Of a stretch of DNA of 64,000 nucleotides, positions 1 to 48,985 are shown piece after piece; positions within the stretch are counted from its first letter, which is position 1, and each line of letters begins with the position of its first letter. The notes beneath the pieces are model-generated. The model did not search any database. It was not told where the DNA came from and was given only the letters and a program-made list of their open reading frames with translations. This DNA comes from Mobula hypostoma (lineage: Eukaryota). The stretch is taken from contig NC_086097.1 in the NCBI RefSeq assembly GCF_963921235.1, positions 93,002,001-93,066,000 on the forward strand. The letters are read 5' to 3'. Both the position numbers and the translations under genes were made by a program.

Positions 1-620
1 GTCAAGTAGGGTGCCGTGCACAATCCTGATTTGATGGAGACAGACGTGAGAGCACAGAGTTACATCTGGTGAAACTTCTGAAATGCCTTCTTCGCTGCCA
101 CTGCTACTGTGTGATCCATAATCTCTGGAGGAGAAGGCCCCGAGTCCTCGGCTTTGCTTGCTGCTCAGCGGCCGGGGCGGGGTCGAAGCGCTCGGCAGAG
201 GATGGTGCTCAGGAGGCTGTATCAGAGGGGCTGGTCGGAGGCTCGAAGTTTTTGGACGGACTCAGAGTCTTCTGTGGTCGAGTGCTTCCAATGCATCGGC
301 AGTTGTCGGCGCCTGGAGGTTTATGGCAGGGAGAGTTTCTCCCTTTTGCCGCCTGCTATCGGGACTATCGGGAGTCGATCGGAACGTTGAGACATTTGTT
401 TTTACTGTGCCCATGGTCTGCTCTTTATCAAATTATGGTATTGCTTTGCACTACTGTAACTATATTTTATAATTATGTGGTCTTGTCAGTGTTAGTCTTT
501 GGTTTATCCTGTTTTTTTTGTCATATCACTCTGGAGGAACATTGTATCATTTCTTAATGCATGCATTTCTAAATGACAATAAATGAGGACTGAATGTCCT
601 CATAATTGAATCTAATCTAT
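1..620 (+). mobile_element. 3' portion of a young CpG-rich non-LTR retroelement (LINE 3'UTR or SINE-like)
   Basis: CpG-rich body, then an AT-rich tail, AATAAA at 578-583, an 8-bp stem-loop (ATGAGGAC 583-590 / GTCCTCAT 596-603) and an AATCT-type short-repeat end. Family not identified. Confidence 0.55.
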
Positions 621-1744
621 CTGCTATATAATGCATTGGGTTAAGTGAAAAGGGATTGAGTTCCCCATTCAGTGAAGAAGAGCAGGATTGCATAGCAAGG
701 GTAAGCAGGATTCTGTGCTTCAGTGACTGTATCACTAGGTGTGTATGAACACGGCTGCGTTCCTCACTGAATGGTCAGCAGGACTATTGTCTTCAGTCAA
801 AAGAAGATTTTGTCTTGCTTGACCAAAGTGAGTTCTTTTCTGACTGATAGTGAGCATGAGTGAGTTCCTTGCCGCATAGGGGTGAGTTTCTCACTGAAGA
901 GTTTTGTTCTTCATTGAATGATGATGAGGATATCAGTCCATAATCAGTAGAAATATTCCCTGCTTCTGTGTGATATGATGACAGGATACCTTAGAGTTTT
1001 ACAGAGTTACATGTATTCTTCCTCCCACTGCAGTGCCACCATGTCTGCACCCTGTGGGAGAACAAGCATGTGAATGAAAAAGTCGTAAAGGCTGCAATTA
1101 TAATGAAACTTGAAGTAGCAAACACTGGAAAAACAGTACTCAGTCGTCAGGCAGCATCTGCAGAAAAGGAAATAGTTAATGTTCCTCGATTCTTCATTAT
1201 AACTGGGAAAGGAAGAAAACAATTTGTTTTCAGTAAGGGGAAACATAGTGGGGGAATGGATAACATTAAAGTTTAGTTAGAGACTGTTAAGTATTTCTTT
1301 TGGTCAGCCCACTCATCCTCAGTCTATTTTTTTTTTATTTTCCTTTCCCAGTCTGACAAAGGGTTCAGAACAAATTTGTGATGGAGGAGTTTGACATGTT
1401 GGGTGAAACTACGACTATGTCGAGCTGATTGCTTGACTAAATGGCAGGGCAGCTCTCTAATTTAGAGACCTGTACCTGATGTTCATCAATATGCAACATC
1501 AAGTGGGGTGGGAGTGACTTCACTGTGTATGAAATTGGTGCTAAGATCAATGATGAATGGTTCATCTAGGTTTACTCTTTCTCGGGTTTAATGTAGCATT
1601 TGACATCCAACTGAATGATCTATTCAAGAGAAGTAGTAAAGCATCAACCATGATGACTGGTATAGAGTTGCATATAGACCACAGTCACTCAGGATTTCCT
1701 ACCCTGGAGGTGAACCAAATGGGAGTTAAATTAGCTGGGTAGTG

Positions 1745-2115
1745 CAAAAAATAGAACTAAAAAAAACAGTGAGGTAGTATTTATGGGTTCAATGCCCATT
1801 CAGAAATTGGATGGCAGATGGGAAGAAGCTGTTTCTGAATCATTGACTGTGTGCCTTCAGGCTTCTGTGCCATCTTCCTGATGGCAACAATGAGAAGAGG
1901 GCATGACCTGCGTGATGGGGGTCCTCAATGGTGAAAGCCACCTTTTTGAGGTATCATTCATTGATACTATGGAGGCTAGTGCCTATGATGGAGCTGACTA
2001 GGTTTACAACTCTCTGCAGCTTATTTCGATCTTGTTCAATAGCAAACCGCACCCCCCCCATACCAGCTAACAATGTAGCCAGTTAGAATGCTCTCCATAG
2101 TACTTCTGTAGAAAT
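1745..2115 (-). mobile_element. Rex1/Babar-like LINE 3' fragment
   Basis: Contains GGGAAGAAGCTGTTTCTGAATC...CTTCAGGCTTCTGT, the antisense of the 'LPSGRR..SL..HT.RF.NSFFP' C-terminal region. The same sequence recurs at ~23820, ~34590 and ~50820. Confidence 0.75.
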
Positions 2116-2159
2116 TTCCTCTTTGACTGATATGATAAAGTTATGACATATTGTGACCA

Positions 2160-2845
2160 TTGTTGGGCCGCTTATTTAAGTAAGGACCCTTGGAGGGTCA
2201 AACACCCTGAGCCAATAGGCTGGTCCTGGACTTACTTCCTGGCATAATTTACATATTACTATTTAATTATTTATGGTTTATTACTATTTAATTATTTATG
2301 GTGCAACTGTAATGAAAACCAATTTCCCTCGGGATCAATAAAGTATGACTATGACTATGTGTTGGCATTAGAGAGTTCAGAGGAGGTTCACAAGAATTAT
2401 TCCAGGAATGAAAGGTTTATCATAGGAGGAGCAATTAATGGCTCATGGCTTTTACTCGCTGGAATTTAGAAGAATGGGGGGAGATCTCATTGAATTCTAT
2501 CAAATATTGAAAGGCCAACATAGAGTGGACATGCGCACGATGTTTTCTATGATGGGGGATTCTAGGACCAGAGGGCACAGCCTCAGAAAGGAGGGACGTC
2601 CATTTATTGCAGAGGTATTTCTTTTGCCAGAGTTGTGAATCTGTGGAATTCATTGCCACAGACTGCTGTGGAAGCCAAGTCTCTGAGTGTATTTAAGGCA
2701 GAGGTTGACAAGTTCTTGATTAGTCAGGGCATGAAAGGTTATGCGGTGATGGCAGGAGAATGGGTTTGAGAGGGAAATGGATCATGCCATGATGAAATGG
2801 TGGAGCAGAATGGCCTAATTCTACTCATATCTTTTATGATCTTAA
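2160..2845 (+). mobile_element. CR1 LINE 3' fragment interrupted by a 171-bp LINE tail (2187-2357)
   Basis: ORF 2438-2638 (YSLEFRRMGGDLIE..SRTRGHSL) matches the CR1 RT C-terminus at 59245-60369. The insert ends in AATAAA plus (TATGAC)n, and the host CR1 reads through as ...TAAGGA|TGTGTTGGC. Confidence 0.8.
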
Positions 2846-3269
2846 GGGTCCAGTTGTTTGCACCTTCTTTTATGAGTCATATAAAGAACTGGCAACAACT
2901 TACAGATAGCAATCTAACAAGAAGCCTCAACTTCTAGTTAGTGAGAGATCATAACCACTGTCAACTTTGTGAAGTTGTAATGAGAACACAGATAAAAGCA
3001 AGCCATTCTGTACATCATGCCAATTGTTGAGTTTTGAAATGGACCAATAAATAAAGCTTCATCTTGCTTTCGGTCACAATCAATGGAACCTGGCACACTG
3101 GGGTCAGTAGAAAATATTGTAGGACATAACTGCATCCAGACATGAGAAAAATACTGATGACCTGCCCAAAGCTCCCAATGATGACTGGTACTTCAACCAG
3201 TAAAAGAAATTAAAGATTTTGCTTTCTGCCAATGTGGTCTAGGCAAATAAGAGTTCACATTGTAACAGC

Positions 3270-3545
3270 CATCAACCATCAGGCTCTTGAACAAAAGGGG
3301 ATTTGTTCTATTCTATTTTTGGTGTCTCCCACAACTGATGGTCTCACTTTAAAGACTTTATCTTGTTATTTTATACTCTTTATTTATTGCTATTTATTTA
3401 TATTTGCATTTGCGCAGTTTGTTGTTCATTGATCCTGTTTACAGTTACTGTTCTATAGATTTGCTAAATATGTCTGGAGGAAAAGGAATTTCAGGGTTGT
3501 ATGTGGTGATGTGTATGTACTCTAATAATTAATTTTACTTTGAAC
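3270..3545 (+). mobile_element. LINE 3'UTR fragment (Rex1-like tail)
   Basis: Starts AACCATCAGGCTCTTGAA and ends with an AATTTCAGGGTTGTATGTGGTGA...TTTACTTTGAAC tail, similar to other Rex-type ends in the window. Confidence 0.5.
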
Positions 3546-4654
3546 ATCCTCACAGCAAGACCTCGCATATCGGAGCTCAGCAAAAGCTTGTGATGAAGCT
3601 CAGGGTATTCCTTGACCTGGTCTACTGCCACACTGCCTTTGTTCTTTAAAGGACGAAGAAATAAACCTCAAGTCCATGGATCATACAGCCAATCCAGCCA
3701 GAATGTTGAAGACATACCACCATTTTGCACTTAGCAAGCTTGCACCATGTGACTAAAAACGAAATAGTGATGCTTGGTGAGGATTAAATATTCCACAGCA
3801 CAACAAGAAAAATGTTCTCACTCTTCTTTGATATACAGTGTGGGATATTTTATCTACCTGAGAGGCAGATTCTTAGATTAAAATCTGATCCAAAAGATGG
3901 TGCTTTCTACATTGCAATGTCTGCTCAGTTTAGATTTGGAATTTTCTAAGTGGTTACATTGGAAATCTATTTTAACAAGTCACATATAACTAGGGGCATC
4001 AATAGGAAAACCATCAAACCAAGCTGTGTTTTAGCCTAAAGTCAATTTTTTTTAAATTAATAATTTTTTTAAAAGTTTATTACATCTGTTAACAGAGAAG
4101 TCAATATGTGTTGCTGCCTTCCACTCTAAGTGACTAATACATTCAGTAGATAGAAATTGCACAGGTTCTAGTCACACACAAAACTCAGTAATCTTGACTC
4201 CTAATGTTGTCCTAAATGGTCTTTAGCATATTACAGAAATTTTGTAACGACAGTATAAGTTGTGCAATAGATCGCAAAGCAATAATTTAAATCAGAGAAA
4301 ATTACATACTAGTGCGGTGGCATTACATTAAGTATCTCCTGGACAGTTATTACTTGGCAAATATATGTGATTGTGTCAACATTTATTCTCACTTGCCCAG
4401 CTACATGTTAGATTTTCTTTCAGAGTATCCCTCTTTAAGAAATTCTCTCTTCTTAGCTTTTACTGCAACTTCCTACTTCAACTTTAATACCCATTCCCTC
4501 TACATCTTCATTCTGTCTATCTCATTCTTTCCTTCTTTGTCTCCCCTCCCAGTTTGGTCTTGCCTCTGTTATTACATCTCTTTCTCCTTGTGCCCATTTT
4601 TATTTTCATTCTAATCTTTTAAAATTTCTCCCTCTTGCCCACAAATAGTCCCAG

Positions 4655-4965
4655 ACTCTTTCCCAGGATAGCGAAACCCAAAACTAGAGGGCATAGGTTT
4701 AAAGTGACAGAAGAAAGATTTAAAGGGGACATGAGGGCATTTCCACCCCCCCACACACACAAAGGGAGGTGGGCATATTGAACACTGCCAGAGATAGTGG
4801 TAGAGGTGGGTACATTTGTGACACTTAGAAAGCACTTAACAGGTTCATAGGTAGGAAGGCTTTACAATGTTGTGGGCCAATCACAGGTAAATTGGAGTAG
4901 CTCAGTAAGGCAACTTGGCTGGCATAAATGAGTTGGGCCGAAGGGGCTGCTTGTCATGCTCTATG
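4655..4965 (+). mobile_element. Decayed CR1 3' fragment
   Basis: AAAACTAGAGGGCATAGGTTTAAAGTGA corresponds to the CR1 'TRGHRFKV' motif. Typical TGGGCCGAAGGG 3' end. Confidence 0.7.
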
Positions 4966-5490
4966 AGGGAACTAAAAAGTGACAGAGGAAGGAGCAATGG
5001 GGAATGGGACATGTAATGATGACCTAGAGGGCTATTTGGTGCTCAGGGAACCTGGGAGATCAAGTGCTTATTAGCCTTTGCCAAATTTAATGGCAGGATG
5101 CATGCAATAAATTTAGATTTTCTTTCCCATTTGCAGTCTTTCTGATTGGAAGATCTGCCTGAGATTGGTAAAGGTGAAGACTCCGGAAAAGTGTAAGGAA
5201 CATCTGGACAAACATCTGAACAGCCAAGGCACTGTAGGCTGTGGATCAAGTGCTGGTAAATGGAACTAGTATAGATTGGGACTTGATGGGCGTAATAGAT
5301 TGAGAAGCTAGCTGGAGAAGGTGTAAAGAAGAGAGGGAAACCTAGAGTCTGGGAGACATGATTTGGGGAAAAAGAGAAAAGAGACTGGAACGAAAGATAT
5401 CATTATGGGGAAGGACATGGATCCAGGGAGAGCATGAGATTACTCTGGGAAGTTGACTTTTTAGGCACAAATGAAACCATTGAGGTGTGT

Positions 5491-5830
5491 ATCTCAAGCA
5501 GCAGTAAATCAAGGCAACTGGACTTGCTGTGTTGTCTAGAAGACATTTCGCCACTCATCTGAGAGGCTTCCTCAGTTCTAATCCATGGTGAGTAGTTTTC
5601 TGGTTTATAAACTTCTCATTACCTCTATGACTCTTAACAACCCTCATGTGATTGCTACACCTTTAAACAACTCACAGAGTTTATAAGCTGGAAAACTACC
5701 CACCATGGATCAGAACTGAAGAAACCTCTTGTGTGAATGGCAAAATGTCTTCTAGACAACACAGCACAGCCTTGATTTACTACTGCTTGATATGCAATGA
5801 CCTGGATGAATGGGAACCTTCATAGACATA
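5491..5830. mobile_element. Penelope-like element terminal fragment arranged as a long inverted repeat
   Basis: Arms 5491-5613 and 5678-5793 are reverse complements around a ~64-bp spacer. They are followed by ATGACCTGGATGAATGGGAACCTTCATAGAC, which resembles fish Penelope/Poseidon ends. Each arm has a CTGAnGA...[G/A]AAA motif. Confidence 0.7.
5537..5580 (-). ncRNA. Minimal type I hammerhead ribozyme motif (Penelope-associated)
   Basis: The minus strand reads TAGAA-CTGAGGA-A-GCCTCTC-AGAT-GAGTGGC-GAAA-TG-TC-TTCTA. This gives stem I TAGAA/TTCTA, a CUGAnGA core, stem II, GAAA and a GUC site. Confidence 0.65.
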
Positions 5831-5974
5831 TTGAGGAGGGGTGTGGGTGCAATTAGGTTGATCACAGGTGGGGTTAATAAGTACCGTACCTTGATGGATT
5901 GCCTCTGCCTTTTCTTCTTGTGGCACAGTCACTGGAAAAAATGAACCCCTTCCATGGATCAGCCCACTTTCCAT

Positions 5975-6380
5975 TTTTGTGTTAAACTTAGAGGTTAAAC
6001 ATCTTGGCAGATAGATTAAAATGGGATTCATCTAGAATTGGATAGGGTATAAAAAAGTGATGGCGGCAGAACTGGAGGGATGAGATGCTGGATAGGTTGG
6101 GCGTTTTCCTCCCACTGCAGCTCAGGAGTGACTCTATGTGGTTTATAGAATCATGTGGAGTACAGACAAGTTGAATAACCAGAGTGTTTTCCCTAGGGTC
6201 ATCCAAAACTAGAAGGCAGAGGATTAAAGTAAGAGAGGAAAGGTGTAAAAGGGATCTGAGGGGCAACTTTTTCTGTGCAGAAGATGGTGCTGATATAGAA
6301 TGAGCTGCCAGAGGTGGTGATCAAAAGACATTTGGACCTAGTGGGCCAAAGGACCACTTTATGTGCGGTATGATTCTCAG
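5975..6380 (+). mobile_element. Decayed CR1 3' fragment
   Basis: GCTGGATAGGTTGGG...TCCAAAACTAGAAGGCAGAGGATTAAAGTAAGAG...GTGGGCCAAAGG follows the CR1 RT C-terminus and 3'UTR pattern. Confidence 0.65.
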
Positions 6381-7059
6381 CATCCTCACCAAAACTGTTT
6401 CTGGAGGGAGTTTAAAATTACTCCAGATACACTTCATAATTTCACTAAAGCTCAAGTGGTGTCTGTACAGTTATGTCCCCCACAGAATTATTTCTGGGAG
6501 CTAGGTACCTGAGGTGGGTGTGCATATTAGATGAGTTACAAGGCATGGCCATCACAATGAGTCATACACACAGAGAAGGCGGCAGCTGCATCCATACATC
6601 CCCGGGGAAACCCAGTACATTGCTACCCATGGACCTTGGCGCCCAAGGCTGAATTGCACATTCAGGAGAAGCAGTCTTTCATTTACAGTGGAAGAATGTG
6701 ATGCCTCTTTTTCAAAAAGAAAAGCTAAACTGTATTACATGCTAAAATAATTCCATCAGAAAGACAGGGAAATGTGGAAAATATTTAGCAGGTGAGGAAG
6801 ATCTGAAGGGAGAGAAATGCTGGAGATAGACTCCTGAATTTACTAAAAGCACAAAGATGGTGTAGCAAAACATGACAACATAAAAATCTGGTCAGGGTAT
6901 TATCAAGGAAACAAAGGTAATTTACTATTACAGACTGCTTTGCCCCTCAGCTATTGAATAACTTATTCACGATCTGCACATCATTCTACCTTCAAAAAAG
7001 ATTGATTTAGTAGAGGTGGCTCAACGATGACAGCAAGGATGATTCTAGAATTTAGTTAC

Positions 7060-7312
7060 TTACTTAGAGATACAGAATGGAACAAGGCCCTCCCAGCCGA
7101 GTCACCCAACAACCCACTGATTTAATCCTATTCAGATTGTTGGACAATTTACAACCACCAATTAACCTACTAACCGGTACATCTTTGGACTGTGGGAGGA
7201 AACCCACATGCACATGGGAAGAAACGTAGAAATTTGTTCACAGAGGACGCTGGAATTGAACTCCGATGCCCCCAGCTGTAATAGCTTTGTGCAAACCGCT
7301 ACACTACCGTGG
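7060..7312 (-). mobile_element. tRNA-derived SINE (HE1/V-SINE-like)
   Basis: Shared core GGACAATTTACAA..ACCAATTAACCTAC..TCTTTGGACTGTGGGAGGAAACCCAC, with antisense A/B-box-like head at ~7250-7310. Several copies occur in the window. Confidence 0.75.
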
Positions 7313-7980
7313 CTCTGAAATTCACTGAACAGAACACCTGATTAAAACGGGGAGAAGTGTAAATGATACGTATTTAATTTAAACTGAATGCTCAGCACAT
7401 AAGGAACAAACACAACTTAAATATAAGTAATACAGATAGTGAAAGTAGTAAGAGTTTTTTTCCAGTTTGTGCAATCAATATCCCAATGTATAATCCACTT
7501 AAAATAGCCTCAGGAATTCTTGGTTAAGAATGGCATAAAAGGTTAATAGAACAAATCTTAGTAGCATTTGTTCTTTGGAATATGATGATCTATGCACTGC
7601 TGGACATGTTAAGGATACAGGTAAGTGGTACCATTTGTAGAAAAACAAACTATAACTCCTGTATATTATTCTTTCATAACCTGAAAATATCTAAGTGGTC
7701 AACCAACACATTTATTTTAAAATGTACTCCATTTGTAGTTCTTCACAAAGCACATTAACTAATTTGCTCACACACAGTCTTATGACAAGATAATCTCTGT
7801 ATAATTGGTTGTTGGATAAATATTGGATAAAATAATGGGGAGAACTCCGCTGTCTTCCAGCTCGGATTGTTCCTGTCCAGCTGAGACAGCCTTCACTTCA
7901 GTGCTTATTGCTCTCCTACCTGTAAGCAGCAGCCAGCCACTTGCACTGCACGGTTGTTTCTTCAACTTCCAGTACAAAAA

Positions 7981-8109
7981 TTATCACTGAACCAATTAAC
8001 CAACCAGTACCTAATCACAATTATCAGTGAACCAATTAACCAACCAGTACCTAATCACAGTTATCACTGAACCAATTAACCAACCAGTGCCTAATCACAA
8101 TTATCACTG
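7981..8109. repeat. 40-bp minisatellite, ~3.2 copies
   Basis: Unit TTATCACTGAACCAATTAACCAACCAGTACCTAATCACAA starts at 7981, 8021, 8061 and (partial) 8101. Confidence 0.95.
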
Positions 8110-8529
8110 GTCTAATTATTGCTTAGTTGTTGCTATAAACTCATTGTGGGGTTGATATTTTGTATTTTATTCATTACAGATAGAGTAAGGCCATGTCTTT
8201 GCCAATTCAACTCATTAATTACCTCCTGCCTGAAGTAGGACCTGGACCCGGACCCGGACCCACTACAATTTACCTCAATGTGCCTGAGGTAGGACTTGGA
8301 CCCAATACAAGAACATCCCTTAAGAACAGAGATGAGGAGGAATTTCTTTAACCAGAGGGTGGTGAATCAGTGAAGTTTATTGCCACAGATGGCTGTGGAG
8401 ACTAAGTTGATAGGTCCTTGATTAGGAAGGGCGGCAGAGTTTAAGGGGAGAAGGCAGGAGAACAGATTGAGAAGGATAATAAACCTCCCATGATGGAACA
8501 GCGGATTGGCCTGACACTATTGCAATGGC

Positions 8530-9600
8530 TTCTGTTCTAGTTTGCCTACTGCAGCAACAGGTCTGTGTCAGACACAACCTCACTGACTCTCCTCTCTGAT
8601 GTGGAGCGCCTAGTAAACAACAATCCCATCATGCCCTCACGAGCCATCGCTAAGCTTCTAAACCTGGGTGTCTATATCTCCCCCTGCAATGGCTTTCTCA
8701 TTGGGAAACTACAGCTGGTGTGGATCAGTGATAACATCTCCTCCTCACTGACAATCAACACAGGCGTACCTCAGAGATGAATGCTTAGCCCACTGCCCTA
8801 CTCTCTCTACACTCATGACTGTTTAGTTAAGCACAGCTCAAACACCATCAATACATTTGCAGATGATAACTGGTAAAATCTCAGATGACAATGAGGAGAC
8901 ATACAGCGGCGAGACAGATTAGTTAGTCGAGTGGTGTCGCACTGAGGCCAAGGTTTTGACTGTGGACTTCAGGATGGGAAAGTTGGGAGAACACATACAG
9001 TTCTCTTTGAAGGTTTAGTGGTGGAAAGGATGATCAGCTTTAAGTTCCTGGGTGATAACATCCCAGAGGATCTAATATGGGTCCAACACATTGATGCAAT
9101 CACAAGGAAGGCACACCACCAGTTCTACTTCATTAGGAGTTTGAGGAGATTTGGTAAGTCACCAAAGACTCCTGCAAATTTCTTCAGACATATGTGGGAG
9201 AGCATTCAGCTTGCATCACTGCCTGGCATGGAGGTTCCCATGCACAGGATTGCAAGTGGTTGCAGAGGTTTCATAGGCTCAGCCAGCTCCACGACGGTCA
9301 CAACCCTCCCCATCACTGAGGACATCTTCAAGAAGCTGGCATCCATCACCAGGGACCCTCACCATTTGTGACATGACATCTTCCTATTACCACCACTGGG
9401 GAGGAGCCACACTCAAAGATTCAGAAACAGCTTTTTCCCTTCTGCCTCTAGATTTCTGAATGGTCCATGAACATTAACTAATTATTCCTTTTATTGGCAC
9501 TGTTTATTTTTAATTTGTAGTAAATTTCTGTGTACTGTACTGTTGTTACAAAACAACAAATTTCACCTTATATGAGACAGTAATAATAAACTTGGTATTC
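8530..9600 (+). mobile_element. Rex1/Babar-like LINE RT and 3' end, degenerate
   Basis: Translations ISSSLTINTGVPQ and SFKFLG..I.EDL.W.QHIDAITRKA..FYFIRSLRRFG. Frameshifted, with an AATAAA tail at ~9585. Confidence 0.85.
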
Positions 9601-10359
9601 TCTCAAAATGTGTCAATACCACTCATTCTTCCAACTTAAACAATGTATCCATGAAGTGTTTGAGAGGCTGTTATGGAGAATCCAGCCCACCAGTGACGGC
9701 TGGACGCTAGACTGTGGTAGTTAGCAGTCTTCGCACATAAAAGCATCTGTTGATGTCTGTCCCATGCGTCAATGCACTTCCCCCTGGAAATGCACGCCTT
9801 GTCCCTGAAATGCATTGTAAAATGGCGAAGCCCCCTGCAACCCCATCCCCAATGCAATCCTACCACAACCACACACAAGCGGACCAGCTGTCAAAACTCT
9901 TCAACAGTTTGGAATGTCTGAGAATCTCTCTGACGTGCACGTATACTGAAAATTATTCGTACCACTAAGTAATAAATGTTTCGAAAGGATTGTGTTTTTA
10001 AAAAGTTAAAAATGTCTTAGGTCAATTTCCTACAGAAGTTATGTTAAAACAAACAATAATTTTAAGTTAACTCAGCATTAAAAGTATATGAAAACTTTAA
10101 ATAGTCGCTCAGTCCATGCTGTGTAAAATGGGACAGCTCAGAAGGCAGATTTTCCCGCCAGCACCGCTGTGAAATTTGCCGGAAATTGACACTCCCTCGC
10201 TTCACTCCACCATCCATTCCCAGTCAGAGTGACCTCACGGAGGACCTCTCAGAAACGGACAGATTTCCTTGAGTCGCTCACGGAGTTGATTTGGTTTGTT
10301 AAATTGACCTTCCTTGCAAAAGATGTGTTGTCACTGGTTTGACATTGTGCCGGAAAGAT

Positions 10360-10415
10360 TGTACTGCCGACAGTGCGGTGCTCGCTCAGTCCTGCATGAG
10401 ACTGTCAGCCTAGGA
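10360..10415 (+). mobile_element. Ancient DeuSINE/AmnSINE-like fragment
   Basis: GACAGTGCGGTGCTCGCTCAGTCCTGCATGAGACTGTCAGCCTAG resembles the segment gacagtgcagcactccctcagtactgcactggagtgtcagcctag (recalled from memory). Confidence 0.5.
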
Positions 10416-10899
10416 GATGTGCTGAGGTAGACAGGGCATGGTCAAAGATATAGTTTTCAAGGAAAAACCACCACTTGGTCAGTATTGCAAAACTGGGTTG
10501 TCTCTGGCTACACGAATACTGAGGCGGGTCAGAGAAATTCATGGAGAGATTGGGGTAGATGCAGTTAGGATCATCGTGGCTGCTTCTGGAATGAGGAACC
10601 AGGTTACTATCCAGAGGCTAAAAAGGGAATACGGTTTTGAAGCGTTGTAGAGGGGAGAGAGATCAGGTCACTGAAGTGATTAAAGAGTGAAGTCGGCGAG
10701 ATGGAAGTAGATGCTATGGAGGAACGGCAAGGCGCTCAATTCAGGGTCAACTGGAAGGGGCTGGTGGCAAAGTGGGTTTAGCCCCTGTGACGGGAGTGTG
10801 TTCATGGGATACCGGGGTATACCCATTCACTCCAGAGGTTCGGAATATCAAACCAGTTCAGCTTGCATTACCGGACCACGCTCCAGGCGAACATTTTTT

Positions 10900-12960
10900 G
10901 TTTTTTTTGGGGGGGGGGAACTAAGGGCCAAAACGTCACGTGACACTTTTATCGTGGTGATGTCACGTACAAGTGACCTGATTATGCGAGGTGCGTTTCA
11001 AAATGCCAAAACACGCGAAAGCCCCGCCGTGGCTTTTGTTACGTTTCTGCCCACTCTTCTGCTTACGTTTGCAGACGTTAACGTGAACAAATGTTTGCCC
11101 CGCGCAGCGAACAATGCACACTGGATAAAACAGGTGGAGACTGGTTCGCGCATTGACTGCATGTTCGGGTGGAAAGAGGGACAATCCGCTTTTTGGCCGT
11201 CTCCGGCAGTGGCGCAGTACAGCAAACAAACAGGCAAGGGGGTTAGGGATGACTCGTCTAGCAGCTGAATGAAAGTGATGCTCTGTAAACAATCGCAAAG
11301 ACTCTTCTAGGTAGAAGACTCTCAATTTTTATTGTGAAGTAACGCTGTGCGTTTCCGGAGCCTTTCTATTGCTAACATCACTTTGATTTTACTTTTGTTT
11401 TCATTTTATTTTTAATCTCTAGGTCCTTGGCCGATCCGATAAGGGACGTGTGGACGTGTGCGTGATTTGCAGAATGTTGCATTCCAGTTCGCGGCGGAGT
11501 CACGTTCCCGGAAGCGGAGCATGACATGTTTTTTTTGTCGATTGCCATTAAACTCCTCCAGCATCTGGAGTTAACGTCGTTGAAGGGGCGGGAGAGAAAG
11601 AATGCTCTCAAAATTGAACTGCGTAGTACGCCGCGTCTCAGTTGTTTGTAAACTTCGATTCAAGGTATAGTTTCCAATCAAAGTGATCTATTTTCAGCTG
11701 ATATCGTCCATCCTCTTTCTGGAAGGGCAAAATGCGAAAGAAGTTAAAAGTCTAATCGGCCTGTCTTATTTCGATTGCTGTACTCTCTTAAGTAGGAAGC
11801 TAATATTTATAAATGTTATCCGTGAACGATCGTTCAAATATTCCTCCCTAACTAAACAGAGAGGAAAAACCTGCCGATTTCAATTCCTTTGGAAACAGAT
11901 TGAGTATGTTGAAATCCGATTCTTTAATATGATCGATCATTGCAATTGGGAAGCGATCCGACCGATATAGTGCATGCTGTTTTGAGTTTACATTCATTAC
12001 AGGAAGAATGCTAAGCTTTTAACAGGGGGCGGGGGTGGTACGAAGGTTAGCTGTCTTTGCAGACCTTGGCCGAATCCCCCACGCATTCATCGTGGGGTGC
12101 ACTTTCTGCGCACACCCTGTCCTCTCCCGAGTGTCTCCGCCTCCTTCATTATTTATCCATTACCGCGGACCATATGGCAACCGTTACTTTTACTTTTGTT
12201 ATGCAAATTTAATTTTTCTTTTGCACACGTAATATTACCCACCAAAAAAAAACAACATGGCGTAGGGGAAGCCGGAGCTGGGCTGAAAAGTTGCTGCCTG
12301 TATTTTTTTTTGGGGGGGTGGCGAAGAAATAAAATTAACATATAGACATAATAGAGCGCTGCTTCGTGCTCTCGGTGGACGTGTCGGCCAGCAGCGCGAG
12401 AACCCCAAGTAAGTGTCAGGCTGTCAGTCAAACGACTTGGGGGCTGGTGGATGTCCGGGGATCTGGGCTCGGCGCGCGGTGCGCGGCGCGGACTGGACCT
12501 GCGAGGCTCTGCGCTTCTACCATTACATGCACTGGCCTTAAAAAAAACACTTTTAAGTAGGTACCATATCCGCCACTTAACGCGGATGCAATGCAAGGAG
12601 GGGAGTTAACCTCACCTACAAAGTTTCCGGTTATTTTAAAGGCGACAGGGGCAATTTTAAGAGGAAAAAAACGGGTGATGGAGAGAGAGAGAGAGAGTGA
12701 TTGACGGGCCGCGGCGCGCGCCGCGGCAGTTGGCTCCGGGCTCAGGCCGGCTGGGTATCCCGGGAGCCCCCGTGTTTACCTCAAGAGCGGCGGCCGCCAC
12801 CGCCGTTCCTTTTCGCAGGCCGGCAGGCGGACGCCTGGGGCTGGAGGCCGGCCCGCCGTCCGCTGTGGGAGTCCCAGCCCGGCACCGGAGGCCAGGGCTG
12901 CCGAAGGGCAGCGAAACCGTTCCCTTTCATCCGCGGCGGCCGTGACCCCCGCCATCTTCT
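10900..12960 (+). promoter_or_regulatory. BAHD1: CpG island / BAHD1 promoter region
   Basis: CpG density rises sharply relative to the flanks. Motifs: GTCACGTGAC E-box (10935-10944), ETS CCGGAAG (11508-11514), GC boxes (11585-11592, 12025-12035), octamer ATGCAAAT (12201-12208), YY1 motifs (AACATGGCG 12254-12262; CCGCCATCTT 12949-12958). It lies upstream of the BAHD1 coding exons. Confidence 0.8.
12245..12408 (+). other. BAHD1: Probable non-coding first exon of BAHD1 (5' boundary uncertain)
   Basis: Consensus donor CAA|GTAAGT at 12409-12414 inside the CpG island, downstream of a YY1 motif. No ATG in the exon-2 frame after the in-frame TGA at 12284-12286. Confidence 0.55.
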
Positions 12961-12964
12961 GAAA

Positions 12965-13830
12965 CCTGGGGTAGAAGGAAGTGATAGGCTGAGGAGGGAA
13001 GGGAGATGAGGTAAAATAGTGGGGAGAAAACTCGGTGGAATGGAGATGAGACAATGAGTGATAGTTGGGACTGGGAGGCAGGAAGGGGGATATTGAAAAA
13101 GCCAGAGAGAAATTAGGGAAGTGGCGCTCAGAAGGCAGGGAGGAGACGATGTGAATTGGGAAGGAGTTATAGAAAGAATTAAGACAATAATGGAGGAGAA
13201 GGTAGTGTGCAAAAGGTTGCATTGACTTTAAAGAAGCAGAAGAGGGATGAATTGTGAGCTGGAATTGCAGGTTACGAAAAAGAAATAGACGGGTAGCATA
13301 GTGAAGAAGAGAACAAGAAATTCATGAGCAACTTGAGGGAATTTCTGGAGAAAAGAGGGTGTGAGTGCATGAGAGAATGAGGGAAAGAAGTCATCCAGTA
13401 TAATGGAAATTGTACTCAATGCATTATACAGCAGAGAAAACCAAAGTGTTGTAAAGGGATTGAAAAGGAAGAAGGGAATATGAGTAAAAAGGTGAGGGTG
13501 AATTGAGGGGAGAATATGTTGAATATGACATAGAAGAGGGGATGGAATACTATCAGAGAAAGGGGGAAGTGAATGAAGCTGAAAAGGAAAAGTGGAATTT
13601 GAAAAGTAATCAAGAGATGATGGGAGGATGGAGTAAAGGAAAGGGTTAAGAGAAGAAAATGAGTGATTCGGGAGTTGGAGGAAGAAAGTTGAAACCATTG
13701 AGAAGGGCAAGAGATTAATTGCTTGAGTTAGTAAATATAGGAGAGCTACAGTCGGGAAGATGGAATGAGAAGTGGAGTAGAGCAAGCTGGGAGAGATGAT
13801 ACAAAGTGTAAAGGGATTAGGGAATTAAAA
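12965..13830 (+). repeat. Purine-rich (G/A) low-complexity tract
   Basis: About 850 bp strongly depleted of C on the + strand. It produces spurious F/S/L/P-rich minus-strand ORFs. Confidence 0.8.
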
Positions 13831-24670: not shown

Positions 24671-25394
24671 CGATCAGGAATACTCTGCATATGCTTTGAT
24701 GTGTATCACTCCGTCAGTTCTAAAGAAGTTCATTGCCAACCAGGACAAAGCCTGCTTGATATCCTAAACAGTCATTCCATCCTCCAGTTGTGCACAGTGG
24801 CTGCTGTATTTGCCATTTTAGTTGCTTGCTCAGGATATTCCAACAACCTGCAACCTCTACTTTCAAGATTGACAAGCACAGTGGGTGTATGGGAACACTA
24901 CCTCCTGCAGGTTTCCATCCAAGTCGCACATCAAACTGACTTGGAACTACGTTGCTGGCGCTTCAGTATGGACTCCAAATCCTTAAACTCCCTCTGCAAT
25001 GGTACTGTAGGAGCATATTGACAAAAAGAACTGCGGATGCTCAAGGTGACAGCTCACTGCCATCTTCTCAATGGCACTTAAAGACAGTAGTTAAATGTTA
25101 ATCTTGCCAGTGGTATGTTGAACTCAGGAAAAATAAATGGATTAAAAGAACTTGCTTTCTGTTAACCGATGTAAAATTCCCCAGATGCTTTAAGTGGGGT
25201 AAATGTATGTCTCTGCATCATAAATGCAACAGCAATATATGAGAGGTGTGAAAAATCAAAATAAAATGGAAAGTACTGAAAATATTCAGCAGGTTACTCA
25301 GTATCTGTGGAGAAAGAAAGGAGTTTTGCATCTATTATCTTAATAGCCTACAGACAACATTAAAATTATCTGAATGTTATTGCAGTTTGAAAGA

Positions 25395-25607
25395 GACACA
25401 AGAGGTTGCAGATGCTTGAATCTGGAGCAACAAACAAGTTACTGGAGGAGCTCAGTGGGTTCAACAACATCTGTGGGAGAAAAGGAATTGTTAAAAGTTT
25501 TAGGTCAAAACTCTGCATAGTTTATCCGAAGCGTTGATAATTCTTTTCCACCCACAGTTACTATTCAACCTGCTGAGTTCCTCCAGCAGTTTATTTGTTG
25601 CTGCAGT
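25395..25607. mobile_element. Palindromic Penelope-derived terminal element
   Basis: GCAACAAAC..CTGGAGGAGCTCAG..TGTGGG pairs with CCCACAG..CTGAGTTCCTCCAG..TTTGTTGC. The arms match the Penelope termini at ~40605 and ~60735. Confidence 0.7.
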
Positions 25608-27842
25608 TTGTGGGAGCTTGCTTTCGGAAAGTTTTTGTTTCAAAACCACAATTTGATATTAAGCACTTTGGCTAACTTGAGGTCAGGAATCCCTGAACAA
25701 GTTTATCTTGTGTTTACTCTCACACAGGCACTGTCTCTTAGCTATTCTCCTTTTATTGCTCTTCATTCCTTCTATATTGGTAACTTTCATTCATTCTTGT
25801 TCTTTCTCATTATTTTCATGATTTGAGTATGAGTTTTGAGATTTTCTTTCTCATCAGTTTCCATATAGTCAGTAAAAGAGAGATGACAAGAGATTGTATG
25901 GAGGGCTAGTCATCACCATCCAAGTTCTATACCAGGTGTGAGTTAATTTGAGTATACTGAAATACTTGGATAGTGCATGAAAATGTTAGTTCTTAGATAG
26001 GTAATGAGAAGGTATTTGGGAGCACAGATTCCAAGTGTTGTTGATTTATCATCGAGACATTAATATCAGCTACAAAGTTAACAAACTGTACCGAATCTCA
26101 CTTTCTAAACATGTCTGCTTTATAAGTTGTGTGACTTGCCTGAATCCTTACTGGTTGGGTATTTCCTAGTTTCTGTGTGGTCCACATGACCTGATGTAAG
26201 GTGGTCTGTTCCTAGAGGATGTGGGCTAGGTAAGTTAAAGCCACATTAGATGGGAGACTCCCTGGAGATGAGGTCATGTGATGTGGGGTGAGCTCATGCA
26301 AATACAGGCCAACTCTGAATGGGGAGTTTGTGTGAGATCCAGCCTTTTTTCACGACCTTTCTCGCGTCTGTTCAGAGAGACCACTCTTTCTAAGTGGACC
26401 ATGACGTGCATATCCCTGCTTGTGAGACTTCCTGGGTTTTGTATAGTGCGACAAAGATGATCTGAATATTGAAGTAAACTTTTTTGGTGCATCCGTTTTA
26501 TTTAATTCTTGAGTCTTCTTGACCTGATCTTAAAGTGTGGTTATACAGATTGTCAATTTGAAGTGACACTGGAGACCATAATAATCCTTGGCTGGAATAA
26601 TGCTACTAGCTATTTAAAGTGAATTATTTTACAAAGGTAATTAATACACATTTTCCAAAGCATTTCTGTGTCACTGTATTAAATGATGAGGTCAAGAAGA
26701 TGAGGGAGCATAGAGGAAGAGAGAAATGGCCTGGTTTCTATGTGATTTGGCTTCAGTGCAGTTTCATCGTCATCTGTCACATAATTACTCAAACTGTGCT
26801 CATTTTCTACTCAGCATTCCTGAAATGGACTTTAATTAAAGCATAATAATTATGAACCAAACATTTATTCTGTTTGTCAAGCTGACTGGCTAACAAGTTC
26901 ACTAATGGTGAATGGCAATTTATTGTCATCACATTGCTACTCAGTTTATCATTATCGGGGAATGCTTTTTGTTAGTCGAATAAATAGGAATCTGAATGGA
27001 ATGTAGTTGAAGCTGTAAGTCTGTTTGTTGACGTATTATAGAATGCTTCTCTAGCATGTGAGATAGTTCCATAGAAAATTATACTTTTTCCCAGGGAGGG
27101 AATTATTTAGTGCCTTTCACAAACTCAGGACATTCCAACCCACTGCAAGTGGGTCAGTTCTTTTCATAGTGTAGAAAATTACAATAAGTTTGCACACAGC
27201 AGTGGTATGTTGGTTGAGGAATAAATATTGGCCAATGTACAGGAGGGTATCTTTTTTTCCAGCTCAGAATAGAATGTAGACCATTTGGCCTCTTGTGATA
27301 GGGAAAAAGAGACCCAAGACTTTGTTGCTTGAATTATTCTATATCAAATTTTATAAAATTGTTGCTATAAAATACTTGCTGAGTGTTGTGCTGAAGGGTA
27401 AGCTTGAATGATCTATTCAAATCTTAGGCCCCTAGGGCCAGGCATACAATTAAGGGGAATGTTACCTGAGGCAAAACAGAACCCCTAATGAGTAGATTCT
27501 CAGTTTCCTTGAATATACATCATAGTCAGTTAATACATTAGCAAAAACATAATTTCTTCTTGAACCACAGTCCAGAGGACCTGTGTTGTTGTATTCTGGC
27601 TTCATTCGCAGTTTTGCCTTAGGAGCAAAGCAAAGTGAGGGGAATTAATTACTTTGGGTTTTGACCTTGAGGCTAATTCGTTCAACTTGCATGAAATTGC
27701 TGTTGGAACTTCACAAGAAGTGCTTGAGAAATGAAATGAAAGGGGTGGACCAAGTTAGGAGTTAAATGTCTCAATGGCACTCAATTTTGTGAGAAATATC
27801 TAAGGGAGGGGGGAATTCCCTTGTTAGTTAAAAGGAACTATA

Positions 27843-29439
27843 CAGTGGCATGCAAAAGTTTGGGCACCCCTGGTCAAAATTTGTTACTTTGAATAGCTAA
27901 GCGAGTAAAAGATGACCTGATTTCCAAAAGGCATAAAGTTAAAGATGACACATTTCTTCAATATTTTAAGCAAGATTACTTTATTATTTCCATCTTTCAC
28001 AGTTTCAAAATAACAAAAAAGGAAAAGGGCCTGAAGCAAAAGTTTGGGCAACCTGCATGGTCAGTACTTAGTAACACCCCCTTTGGCAAGTATCATAGCT
28101 TGTAAATGCTTTCTGTAGCCAGCTAAGAGTCTTTCAATTCTTGTTTGGGGGATTTTTGCCCATTCTTCCTTGCAAAAGTCTTCTAGTTCTGTGAGATTTT
28201 TGGGCCATCTTGCATGCACTGCTCTTTTGAGGTCTATCCACAGATTTTCAATGATGTTTAGGTCGGGGGATTGTGAGGGCTATGGCAAAACCTTCAGCTT
28301 GTGCCTCTTGAGGTAGTCCATTGTGGATTTTGAGGGGTGTTTAGGATCATTATCCTGTTGTAGAAGCCACCCTCTTTTCATCTTCAGCTTTTTTACAGAC
28401 GGTGTGATGTTTGCTTCCAGAATTTGCTGGTATTTAATTGAATTCATTCTTCCCTCTACCAGTGAAATGTTCCCCGTGCCACTGGCTGCAACACAAGCCC
28501 AAAGCATGATTGATCCACCCCCATACTTAACAGTTGGAGAGGTGTTCTTTTCATGAAATTCTGCACCCTTTTTTCTCCAAACATACCTTTGCTCATTGTG
28601 GCCAAAAAGTTCTATTTTAACTTCATCAGTCCACAGGACTTGTCTCCAAAATGCATCAGGCTTGTTTAGATGTTCCTTTGCAAGCTTCTGATGCTGAATT
28701 TTGTGGTGAGGACACAGGAAAGGTTTTCTTCTGATGACTCTTCCACGAAGGTCATATTTGTGCAGGTGTCGCTGCACAGTAGAACAGTGCACCACCACTC
28801 CAGAGTCTGCTAATCTTCCTGAAGGTCTTTTGCAGTCAAACAGGGGTCTTGATTTGCCTTTCTAGCAATCATGCGAGCAGTTCTCTCGGAAAGGAGTTTT
28901 CTTGGTCTTCCAGACCTTAACTTGACCTCCACCATTTCTGTTAACTGCCATTTCTTAATTACATTACGAACTAAGGAAACAGCTACCTGAAAACGCTTTG
29001 CTATCTTCTCATAGCCTTCTGCTTTGTGGGCATCATTTATTTTAATTTTCAGAGTGCTAGGCAGCTGCTGATGGTTGGGACAAGGTTTGAGGAGTCAGGG
29101 TATTTATAAAGCTTTGAAATTTGCATCACCTGGCCTCTCCTAACGATGACTGTGAGCAAGTCATAGCCCTAACAAGCTAATTAAGGTCTGAAACCTTGGT
29201 AAAAGTTATCTGAGAGCTCAAATCTCTTGGGGTGCCCAAACTTTTGCATAGTGCTCCTTTTTTTTTCCACTCTAAAATTGTACAAAATGAACATAATACA
29301 CTAATCTTGCTTAAAATTTTGAAAATAATGTTTAATCTTTAACTTTATGACTCCTGGAGATCAGTTCATCTTCTACTCACTTAACTATTCACAGTAACAG
29401 AAATTTTGACCGCGGTGCCCAAACATTTGCATGCCACTG
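27843..29439 (-). mobile_element. Full-length Tc1 (DD34E, IR/DR type) transposon, inactivated
   Basis: TA TSD and ~200-bp TIRs beginning CAGTGGCATGCAAA, with inner direct repeats (GCAAAAGTTTGGGCA at ~28036 and its complement at ~29233). Carries a transposase remnant. Confidence 0.95.
28061..29070 (-). pseudogene. Tc1 transposase pseudogene
   Basis: TDEVKIELFG, then QQDNDPKH...KVLP*PSQSPDLNIIE (34 residues between D and E), ending GGVTKY* at 28061. Defects: a W-to-stop at 28280, frameshifts in the N-terminal HTH region and no visible start codon. Confidence 0.9.
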
Positions 29440-31910: not shown

Positions 31911-33516
31911 CAGGTTTCCCCCGCCATCCGAAGGTAGAGCGTTCCTATGAAACGGTTCGTAAGCCGGAATGTCATAAAGTGAAGAAGCAATTACCATTTA
32001 TTTATATGGGAAAAATTTGTGAGTGTTCGCAGACGCAAAAATAACCTACCAAATCATGCCAAATAACACACAAAACCTAAAATAACAGTAACATATCGTA
32101 AAAGCAGGAATATGATAAATACACAGCCTATATAAAGTAGAAATATTTCCGTACAATCATTGCCGCACTGTTCTCCGTAGCGAAAATCTCATACAAGCGC
32201 TCTTGGCAGAAACACTCTCTCCAGTAACCTTTAAGCTATGAAGCTGCCAAATCATACCAAATAATGCATAAAAATACACAGCCTATATAAAGTAGAAATA
32301 ATGTATGTACAGTGTAGTATCACTTACCGGAATTAGGAAGACAGCACCAAGCACACTGATGGTGTGTTAGGCTGAGTCGTCAGAGGTTGGGGTGGTGCAG
32401 TGGTCCCCAGCCTCTGGGCAGCGAACTGATACCTATCCACGAAGCATGCAGGGGTACAGTGGTAGCCGGGACGCACCCAGCACATCTTTAAGAAAAAAGC
32501 TGAAATAAACAAGCTAATTGATTGGGTGCTGCCGGGCACATAAATGTTGACCCAGATCAGAGGCGATGCAATTGGCAATCGCCCCTGATCTGGGCTAACA
32601 TTTACGTGCCGGGTGGCACCTAATTAATTAGCTTGTTTATTTCGGCTTTTTTCTTAGAAATGTGTTGGGTGCGTCCGGGCTACCACTGCATTCTCCGTGG
32701 CAATGTATCAGTCCGCGGCCCGGGGTTGGGGTGGTGGGACACTAGGGTGTCATCTCATCGTGGATCATGTGAGGCAGGTCGTCATCTGTGTCTGCCTGCC
32801 TCGATGTTGAAGGTCGAGGTTCGTCGTCTGCTGTGGCTGATTGGAAGGCTTGCTTGACTGCTTAGCCTCGCGCATTTTTCTATCATACAGTTCTTTGTAA
32901 GCACTCAAACCATCCTGCAAATATGCCCTAAACCGATGTACCCTTTCAAAATTAAAGTCGTACTTTATCATTGCAGCGAAAATCTCTCGCAGTTGCTTCA
33001 CGTTCAGTTCCTGGATGACTTCACTTTTGGTCCGTTCGCTACTGCATTCGGTTTCAATTGTTATCCTTTTCTCTTCCAATTGCATCAGCTCTTCATCTAT
33101 CAGTTCTTGGTCATGGGATGCCAAAACCTCTTCAACATCATCTTCGTCAGCTTTCACAAGCGAAACTCACTTTGTCCTTACTTTGTTCACCACGATCGAA
33201 AATCTTAATTATGTCTAGTTTTACGCTAAGTGTAACACCTTTACGAGCTCTTTTAGGCTTTTCCGACACCTTAGAACTCATCTTGCTAACGGCTGCTCAA
33301 AATAAATCGACATAAAGCACAGATGCTCACAGGCATGTGTTTAAGCAATGCCGGCTAGAATGCAGTTCCGGGGGAGGAGTGGCTGTCTTTTTCCGCACGC
33401 TGCCTTTTTTTGTAACAGGGAAAACACCTTCTATTAGCGAAAACAGGTATCTAATGTAGGTCTTTCGTAACAGTGAGGTTTCGTAAAGTGAACGTTCGAA
33501 AAGTGGGGGACACCTG
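31911..33516 (-). mobile_element. Tigger/pogo-like non-autonomous deletion derivative
   Basis: TA on both sides and imperfect TIRs CAGGT(T/G)TCCCCC(G/A)C. The N-terminus MSSKVSEKPKRARKGVTLSVKLDIIKIFDRGE (ATG at 33281) abuts the acidic C-terminus DEDDVEEVLASHDQEL..YKELYDRK. The DDE core is missing. Confidence 0.85.
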
Positions 33517-41450: not shown

Positions 41451-42647
41451 ATGGGATCTGAGATGTCTTGTGTCTGTTTTTAAGCTTCATTTTTCAGTTT
41501 GTACAACAATATTAATTAAGTTGGTTATCAATAAGTTTGGTACTGTAGTTCCAGAGATGGTGCGTTGTATTCCTACCATGGCTTCAGTTCTTTAAGGAAG
41601 TTCAAAGGGCTGCCATTAGTAAATGTGTACATATCTTAGAATTTTTTGTAAAATCCTGTCTGCACAAAAGAAGCATTCTGATGTGGCCTCACAAGGATCG
41701 TGGCTTTGCTGACTCTTAACTGTCAGTAAGTGGCCAAGGAAACCATTCAGTCATATGAAGCTGTCAAGATATGTAAACTGGGATGGGCGATAAATAACAG
41801 GCAATCTCAATAATGCTCATGCGACAGGATTGAATTATAACACTGGTGAAAGTAATTAACTTTGAAGTTAGAGATCTGGGAGGAACATAGAAATATTTCA
41901 ATTAAGTACCAATTTGTTACTGTTCTACACTCCCAGTTTCGAGTGGCATATGTTCCTGAAATCAGGTGAGAGCTTATTTTATAGTGACCTACTCCAAACA
42001 GCTTTGTGAAGCTTTGGCTTAAAGATCCATGGCCCTCTCTAACCCTCTGAGCCTCTGAGCCTTGCACATTTTGACAACCAAGGGTGAACATAGTTCTTCA
42101 GGCAAGTCTGCAAAGCACATGTGACTTGTCTCATCTTCTCAATTCAAGCCAAAATCACTTTGCAGGAAATCCAGATAATTTTGGAGCCGAGCTTCACTTC
42201 AGCACAGATTCATATATGCCATTTGCTGCTGTTTTAGGAAGAATAGTGAGTGTGATGTGAAGTAGTTGTCCTGAATTGCTGGTTTATGGGAGTAACTTGC
42301 ACTCTTGTAATTTTTAATGTACCCTATTTTTATATTGCACATTCCCCCAGCCTAAAGTAATGTCTCTGGGCACCTTTTAAACAGAGGTTCCAGTAGTCCA
42401 TTGCCTTTCAGCAGCCCCTCAACCAAGTCAAGGCACTTTCCACTTAGCAGAAGCGGAGTTTATTTATTTAAGTAGACTAGAGCACTGTGCAGCCTTGATG
42501 AGGGGTGCGAATTGCTGTCTGGTAGGATTGACTTAAAACTGTTAAGATTCTTTCTGGTGCTGATACAGGAGTGTGGTGTCTCAGTGTGTTGGTTTGTTTT
42601 TGACATACTGAAATCTCTGTTCTGCATTTCACAGGTCTAATTATGAA

Positions 42648-44199: not shown

Positions 44200-45007
44200 G
44201 TAAGAAATCACCATTAGTAGAGCTTGTAAGATATCATCATGGACTGAGATGGTAGGTTTCCATTGGATGAATCTGAAATCGTTGAAAGGAAGTTTCAATT
44301 TTTCTCTGAATTTTGCTGTCTTGGTGCAGTAACTTTGAGGTATAAATGTTAAAGTTAGTCAGTTAACGAATCCAGGAATATTTGCATTTCTCGGAGAGCG
44401 ATTTGATTGTGGTACATAAAGGAGTTGAGACGTTATGTAGGTGGCTTGAAGGACTTGTGTAGTAATCATGTTAAGGAGAGAAATAATATTCGCTATAAGG
44501 TAACAAGCTGGGAGGAAGCTTTTGTGGAGCAGGAGTGCTAGCGTTGATTTTGGTGTGAATGGCCAGTCCCTTTGAGTTTTGACTTAACCTCTCACATGTG
44601 ACCCATTTCTCTGATGCAGTTTGGTCTTGCATCCAGCCAAGATGAAGACTGACTTCTCTACACCATCTTTGGCCACAGCCTCTCACTATATGCAATTTAA
44701 CAATGTTGAACTGGATTTTATTCACTCATTGGAACTACACTTGGTTACCATTTCAATGATGGCTGAACTTGCAATTCTAGCCCTTATGTTCAAGACTTTC
44801 ATGACATTCCCCTTTACTGCCTTCTTAATCCTTGAAATAATTCTGCTTCCTAGACTCGTAACTTTGGATTTCTCTCTTTTAAAAAAAAAACTCTGTTCTT
44901 TTTATGTCCTCCCATAAAACTGACAAACTTCTTTTGACCTCTGTTGCTGTTGTACGGGTTAGCCTGACCATAACAGCTGTAAAATGTCATGATTTTTTCT
45001 TATAATA

Positions 45008-47527: not shown

Positions 47528-47656
47528 ATTTATTTAGAGATACAATGTGAAATAGGCCTTCCCGGCCCATGAAGCTGTACTGCCCAGCAACCCACCAATT
47601 TAACCTTAATCTTATCATAGGACAATTTACAATGACCAATCAGATCCCACCAATTA
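47528..47656 (-). mobile_element. SINE 3' fragment
   Basis: AATAGGCCTTCCCGGCCC..GGACAATTTACAATGACCAAT core. Confidence 0.75.
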
Positions 47657-48749: not shown

Positions 48750-48985
48750 ATAGTTAGCACAATGCTTTATAGTACAGGTGACCCGAATTCAATTCCTGCT
48801 GCTGCCTGTAAGAAGTTTTTACATTCTACCCCGTGATCGTGTGTGTTTCCTCCCACAGTCCAAAGACAGACTGGTTGGTAAGTGTAAATCGTCCCATGAT
48901 AAGTCCAGGGTTAAATCGAAGGATTGCTGGGCAGTGTGGTTTGAAGGGCTGGAAGGGCCTTTTCCATGCTGTATCTCAATAAATC
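48750..48985 (+). mobile_element. tRNA-derived SINE
   Basis: GTTAGCACAATGCTTTA..GACCCGAATTCAATTCC..CTCCCACAGTCCAAAGAC..GAAGGGCCT..CTCAATAAAT. Confidence 0.8.

Follow-up and report, generated by a model that had tools for sequence, protein, structure and literature searches.

Minimal hammerhead ribozymes occur in the ends of Penelope-like elements (PLEs), including the fish elements Xena and Poseidon, as reported by Cervera and De la Pena (2014; PMC4209133). In the sections of that paper drawn on here, minimal hammerheads show no cleavage as monomers and low cleavage as dimers. Dual motifs on opposite strands, ~100-700 bp apart, are described there for S. mansoni, and the legend of Fig. S4A places a second, opposite-strand motif at the 5' end of a truncated PLE. 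Inverted, 5'-truncated copies and a one-sided tail of 30-40 bp, which encodes the start of the open reading frame (ORF), are documented in parts of Craig et al. (2021; PMC8557442) and Arkhipova et al. (2013; PMC3846280), together with duplications of 8-10 bp, and self-priming is proposed as the cause. The inverted ends of PLEs are counted as unexplained in the section of Craig et al. cited here.

According to the portion of Frangieh et al. (2024; PMC11167929) used here, the anole Poseidon PAc cleaves and extends both strands with a preference for ATT. Two internal start sites of the reverse transcriptase (RT) bound its tail, a dimer is predicted, and the hammerhead is protein-dependent and dispensable for insertion in vitro. 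The three supplementary files of that paper gave no match for tail or motif terms. Tandem retrozymes derived from the terminal repeats of PLEs (pLTRs), present in one cartilaginous fish, are described in part of a recent preprint (Li et al. 2026; bioRxiv 10.64898/2026.07.22.740005). In the open literature, no paper was found on the family considered below, nor one joining Penelope and hammerhead in this lineage.

The present locus lies in a 64-kb stretch of DNA, here called the window, whose repeats suggest a cartilaginous fish. It is very probably one old insertion of an EN-bearing PLE of the Penelope/Poseidon type, reduced to its terminal repeat by the steps discussed below and now an inert fossil. 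The whole unit occupies 5486-5829 (left start 5486-5488) and consists of an inverted, tail-less PLE end joined head to head to a longer, tailed end. Its left part (5486-5613, minus strand) is an inverted, 5'-truncated, tail-less copy of the pLTR, recognised from the alignment of the arms, the match to the pLTR of a relative and the termini of reads. It is followed by an unpaired loop of 64 nt (5614-5677, plus strand), which read depth and loose ends identify as the upstream portion of the right-hand pLTR copy, and by the right arm (5678-5796, plus strand), a direct pLTR copy. This arm is 7 nt shorter than the left one, owing to a 7-nt deletion near 5766-5768 that is visible in the alignment and at which family reads insert letters (5766/5768). 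The unit closes with a PLE tail of 33 nt (5797-5829, plus strand), corresponding to the first 11 codons of the ORF (MTWMNGNLHRH), as indicated by tblastn, ORF starts and read depth. The longest direct repeat at the unit ends is a 7-bp target-site duplication, ATTGAGG, with its left copy at 5479-5485 and its right copy at 5830-5836 (plus strand). It was spotted post hoc, at unit ends set independently by read depth and loose ends. According to 5000 random trials per setting, its chance probability is 0.0008 when the box is tight (4x3) and 0.015 for the wide box that was actually searched.

The inverted arms of ~120 bp noted in the preliminary description are real: 5488-5613 and 5678-5796 are identical in 103 of 119 aligned columns, and a repeat search returned them as the arm pairs 5525-5613/5678-5766 (85%) and 5488-5515/5769-5796 (89%). 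Fourteen of the mismatches are transitions and two are transversions, five changes being of the CpG type; the window as a whole is CpG-poor (observed/expected 0.28). The fold of 5480-5800 reaches -163.4 kcal/mol (z = -19.4), a stability attained by 0/100 shuffles, and microhomology at the palindrome junction amounts to at most ~2 nt, too little to be informative. The extent first given for the unit, 5491..5793, did not hold, since the family signal reaches 5828-5832, 36 nt beyond that end, and thereby takes in the 33-nt tail; a 7-bp repeat flanks the enlarged unit, and the loop belongs to the family.

The family was surveyed in read contigs from four runs, aligned to window positions 5150-6140 at 80% likeness. 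Three are DNA runs (organisms A, C and E) and one, X22, is presumed to be RNA; runs X10-X12 and X14-X20 (small shares) and organism B were left out. The family is very abundant in the host and in two relatives, the three DNA runs yielding 2352, 2167 and 2827 records. Summed depth, which is not a copy number, is 1,300-47,000 over 5490-5829 versus 6-15 in the unique flanks. It is also high over the loop, which is family sequence and not captured host DNA. The presumed RNA run gave 128 family records with no cover on the unique flanks and does not inform on expression either way.

At the right end, reads depart at 5828-5832 into unrelated flanks (agreement 0.37-0.42). The left end behaves in two ways: 72-89 contigs per DNA run depart at 5494 into unrelated flanks, and 30 and 48 contigs (runs X1 and X13) run on before 5488 in a common sequence, namely 5797-5829 in reverse complement. 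Family reads thus either end at 5488-5494 or proceed into tail sequence, which implies that the family has two termini, one tail apart. The copy studied here has a tail on its right side only.

The connection to PLE proteins was established through relatives. The tail pattern retrieved 22 fish-like metagenome loci, among which three pairs seem to be duplicate entries of one locus each. One of these loci, L022, carries a 677-aa ORF with an RVT_1 match (E 4e-11), the motif DKG and a C-terminal VVY..YIG; Pfam made no GIY-YIG call on this ORF, and the GIY-YIG assignment follows that last motif. The stop of the ORF is directly followed by a hammerhead, a linker and the tail. The left arm is identical to the 3' pLTR of L022 in 71 of 94 columns (score 90 versus a shuffle maximum of 32), and the right copy matches the same pLTR with a score of 80 versus a shuffle maximum of 36. 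In a second locus, L008, the tail opens an ORF that is 68% identical to the L022 ORF over 152 aa. With the L008 ORF as query, 51 proteins were found, DKG being present in 51/51, and five of them (P0003-P0007, from Xenopus, catfish, Tetraodon and two more) start with MTWM[T/N/I]ENLH. The tail in the window is the best tblastn match of the L008 ORF there (9/12 identical, E 0.18), and this 12-residue match is all that tblastn gave for a PLE ORF in the window. No cartilaginous fish is named among the 51 proteins, and the link to the ORF runs via fish and frog relatives.

The Penelope origin suggested earlier is accordingly supported, as pLTR and tail match the RT/GIY-YIG ORFs of these relatives. 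An ORF-linked repeat, an optional 30-40 bp tail at one end, and an inverted 5'-truncated copy with a duplication are all found here, as in EN+ PLEs (Penelope/Poseidon). The zinc-finger-like linker between RT and EN that marks Neptune and Nematis in the part of PMC8557442 cited was not seen by inspection of the ORF of one relative (L022). Two patterns run against viral contigs gave 0 matches. For host exons nearby, Pfam likewise gave 0 matches; this search covered 113 of the 127 ORFs that reach 45 aa in window positions 1-13000.

The palindrome was most likely built per insertion, because other members of the family run past its junction or have other junctions. The preliminary description had raised a non-autonomous family. 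A fixed palindromic family of this kind, MITE-like or retrozyme-like and moving with two opposed hammerheads, would suit the high abundance and the lack of an ORF at the locus, and non-autonomous PLE derivatives are known from the sections cited of bioRxiv 10.64898/2026.07.22.740005 and PMC8557442. It is nevertheless very improbable. Upstream of 5614, 62, 44, 86 and 9 contigs continue in one common, non-palindromic sequence (agreement 0.74-0.81), and among the 32 of 7796 records listed, none spans 5613/5614 with 31 letters to either side. A same-strand skip from 5532 to 5769 was found in one contig each in X9 and X13, the 12 of 31 between-letter rows listed have differing join points, mostly at single-copy depth, and other junctions occur, among the rows listed, in one or two contigs each. 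A one-sided tail is moreover unlike terminal inverted repeats, and retrozymes are head-to-tail tandems, whereas no tandem unit is present here. A small subfamily with this exact junction may still exist, the joints and records listed being part of the total. Of the 14 opposite-strand joints listed (among 15 of 153 joints listed), 13 were dismissed as reference artefacts, since they sum to 11263-11289, the palindrome's own axis.

Inverted arms beside a tail were found in 4/22 of the metagenome loci, with spans of 91, 99, 144 and 181 nt and one tail each; three of the four have close-fitting duplications of 15, 8 and 9 bp, the fourth being doubtful, and the other 18/22 loci have no inverted arm. 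L017 1665-1842, L002 1202-1324 and L010 153-283 are fish-like, nearly loop-less palindromes with one tail and duplications of 8-15 bp; the sub-threshold scores of L017 against many miRNA models reflect nothing but its hairpin.

The left arm holds a minimal type I hammerhead motif with an intact core (5537-5580, minus strand). Read from 5580 to 5537, it comprises stem I (5 bp), CUGAGGA, an extra A, a stem II of 3+3 bp with one U-U mismatch, GAAA, UGUC and stem I'. A pattern search found it to be the sole perfect-core hammerhead in the window; under an order-1 Markov null the mean is 0.03, with at least one motif in 3/100 simulations. The corresponding plus-strand motif (5711-5754) is a relic with a degenerate stem II. 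Here, GAAA has become AAAA at 5742, with loss of G12, and a change of G10.1 to A at 5724 destroys the first base pair of stem II, which is a conserved one. The role of G12 in hammerhead catalysis is well established. The minus copy therefore has the core CUGAnGA...GAAA...UH, both stems and the additional nucleotide that precedes stem II, whereas the plus copy lacks this core. This agrees with the layout given in the preliminary description for the minus-strand motif, including a properly placed predicted cut at 5542/5541, with its assignment to the minimal type I class, and with its reading of the plus copy, to which the G10.1 change is added. The statement that there are two ribozymes fails, as the plus copy is without G12.

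In the intact motif, the stem III palindrome ACGU has become AUGU. At 15.2-16.2 this sequence pairs via U-G wobbles only, and the intermolecular stem III is calculated at +1.2 kcal/mol, versus -3.1 kcal/mol for ACGU. The change was attributed earlier to CpG decay, and the family bears this out: ACGU is intact in L022, L014 and L008, and in family reads GAAA is retained and the letters after it are CATC or TGTC, both of which are CpG decay products of CGTC and thus imply an ancestral ACGU. Of the findings named beforehand as refuting the preliminary reading, neither a family that has lost GAAA nor a lack of any tie to Penelope ORFs is observed.

Searched at E up to 5, Rfam found no hammerhead family in the window (four weak, unrelated matches). 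It also reported no hammerhead in four metagenome loci, though L022 and L014 carry intact motifs, and its blank on the window is therefore uninformative. For the same reason, the Rfam result lends little to the view that the locus is a DNA-transposon MITE, or a chance palindrome with a coincidental hammerhead-like string. Such an origin could also appeal to the inverted arms, the short duplication and other DNA-transposon palindromes in the window, yet it is barely conceivable beside the homology to an ORF-linked pLTR and a tail on one side only.

Cleavage of the minus-strand motif is predicted to be unlikely, because its stem III is weakened, it has no same-sense partner and the competing hairpin is more stable by 58 kcal/mol. 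In the modelled minus-strand transcript, forcing the ribozyme stems yields -128.5 versus -186.3 kcal/mol, and the probability of stem I is below 1e-36; for the motif alone with 20-nt flanks, the antisense arm being removed, it is ~0.02. The antisense arm is, in addition, transcribed before the ribozyme arm. The competition between ribozyme folding and hairpin that was envisaged earlier would therefore be one-sided. Nor can the opposite-strand copy act as a dimer partner, and the window contains no same-sense partner hammerhead for the minus-strand motif.

The relatives bear on the age of the insertion. In organism C, contigs cover the unique left flank and extend 56 letters into the arm, with 23 differences in 394, and in organism E they extend 33 letters into it, with 29 differences in 371; the insertion is therefore older than the split of these organisms. 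Divergence between the arms is 13% (16/119 columns), or 9% without CpG-type changes, versus 6-8% between orthologous flanks, which would fit neutral drift over a slightly longer time. The locus might instead have been exapted as a regulatory RNA, a ribozyme/antisense switch or a small-RNA hairpin under selection. It has been kept in three organisms whose flanks are up to ~8% apart, its minus-strand core is perfect and its hairpin is very stable. Such a role is very unlikely indeed, since the arms have diverged about as expected under neutrality, mostly by transitions and with a 7-nt deletion, and neither the weakened stem III nor stem I, poorly formed even without the antisense arm, favours a working ribozyme. 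In the parts of the literature cited above, published minimal motifs are also inactive as monomers, and the anole motif requires its protein.

The anatomy is consistent with the following course of events. The GIY-YIG endonuclease would have made a staggered cut, giving rise to the 7-bp duplication. Reverse transcription would have begun internally on the RNA, at the tail, and stopped after 216 nt (from 5829 to 5614). The same event would also have added an inverted copy whose end is the tail-less terminus; the new cDNA may have folded back and primed itself, or priming may have occurred on the other nicked strand. Because the final ~120 nt of the repeat include the hammerhead, any long enough stump made in this way would contain two opposed motifs as a by-product. 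Both arms would later have drifted neutrally, with CpG decay, and the locus is now most likely an inert fossil without self-cleavage.

Of the two sources proposed for the inverted copy, fold-back self-priming is the published proposal, and the two-primer reading extrapolates from the part of PMC11167929 cited here. It is tentatively conceivable that a PLE protein acting as a dimer nicks each strand, with a 7-nt offset, and primes at both nicks. With similar reserve, two truncated cDNAs may be supposed to be joined afterwards, one of them begun at the internal start site with the tail and the other at the one without it. Such a route would account for the tail on one side only, for junctions that vary and for the duplication, with no need of fold-back. 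If it is correct, the very abundant copies in this lineage would allow the origin of PLE inversions to be tested on genome sequences by themselves.

The template may also have differed. For a palindrome built per insertion, the RNA copied could have come from a short pLTR derivative that is non-autonomous and was moved in trans. No ORF of the host itself was found, the loose ends before 5614 are short (medians 16-54 nt) with the body of the family unseen, and pLTR sequences suffice in trans in rotifers, as stated in the section of PMC3846280 cited. Such a donor is nonetheless the less likely one: a 5'-truncated autonomous RNA yields an identical stump, most PLE copies are truncated according to the parts cited of PMC4209133 and PMC8557442, and in L022 the pLTR unit stands directly after the ORF stop. 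It is compatible with the insertion of an EN-bearing PLE preferred here and alters the donor alone.

The surroundings of the unit are rich in other repeats, including LINE and Tc1 remnants. Just to its left, 5184-5319 is a further repeat fragment with a summed depth of up to 1,900 and loose ends at 5289, and a 40-nt tandem repeat occupies 7981-8118. A decayed palindrome at 25270-25609 (71% between arms), with short matches at 46391-46425 and 60729-60758, may resemble a second, shark-type Penelope family. Decayed hammerhead-like strings with a different type of stem II start on the minus strand at 60819 and 40689, with at most 3 mismatches to a relaxed pattern, and are possibly relics of a second PLE family. 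The palindrome at 32457-32688 has 111-nt arms, 87% complementary, and a 10-nt loop; it is single-copy in the window and adjoins a transposase-like fragment (32765-33166), which may resemble pogo/Tigger. DNA-transposon-like units with long terminal inverted repeats lie at 27882-29399, with a Tc1/Tc3 transposase fragment (HTH_Tnp_Tc3_2, E 7.7e-10), and at 47537-48977, the latter with several relatives in the window. By inspection, an inverted duplication at 58592-58954 (118-nt arms) resembles the Tc1 transposase region 28280-28861. A young LINE fragment at 59245-60402 (minus strand) has an open RT frame of 385 aa (RVT_1, E 2.6e-22). Finally, 42612-44255 (plus strand) is a GC-rich open frame of 547 aa for which Pfam gave nothing and all Atlas leads were under 0.9. 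It is probably a large host exon, and its LASLNAEA motif is reminiscent of BAHD1.

In the sources cited, the pLTR hammerheads of fish Xena and Poseidon are like the minus-strand motif in their GAA/UUC stem I, CUGAnGA with an extra A, GAAA-N-N-UC, and a stem II of 7 bp with a 4-nt loop, and PMC4209133 shows motifs of the same layout for Takifugu, Tetraodon and cichlids (Fig. S3). The present locus differs in a U at 15.2, which would form a U-G wobble in a dimer, in the U-U mismatch of stem II and in a second copy without G12. The sections of that paper drawn on here list no cartilaginous fish. With the insertions treated in the cited parts of PMC3846280 and PMC8557442, the locus shares a shorter, inverted pLTR joined head to head, a tail at one end that encodes the first residues of the ORF, and a duplication. 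It differs from them in having no ORF between the repeats, a 64-nt loop in place of a tight palindrome, and a duplication of 7 bp. The anole PAc, as far as the cited part of its description goes, likewise has two termini one tail apart, matching its two internal RT start sites, and prefers ATT for cleavage, the letters with which the duplication here begins; its ORF starts within the hammerhead, whereas here the ORF starts ~45 nt downstream of it. Non-LTR retrozymes, in the portion of the preprint cited, are likewise non-coding, PLE-derived and equipped with type I hammerheads, but they form head-to-tail tandems in which two or more motifs have the same sense, whereas the present unit is head-to-head with one motif per strand. 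A single decayed copy matters little, and its value is that of a data point in a very large family, of a kind that could settle how PLEs form inverted ends. Minimal PLE hammerheads, opposite-strand pairs, inverted ends and one-sided tails are already published, and the arrangement is ordinary for PLEs.
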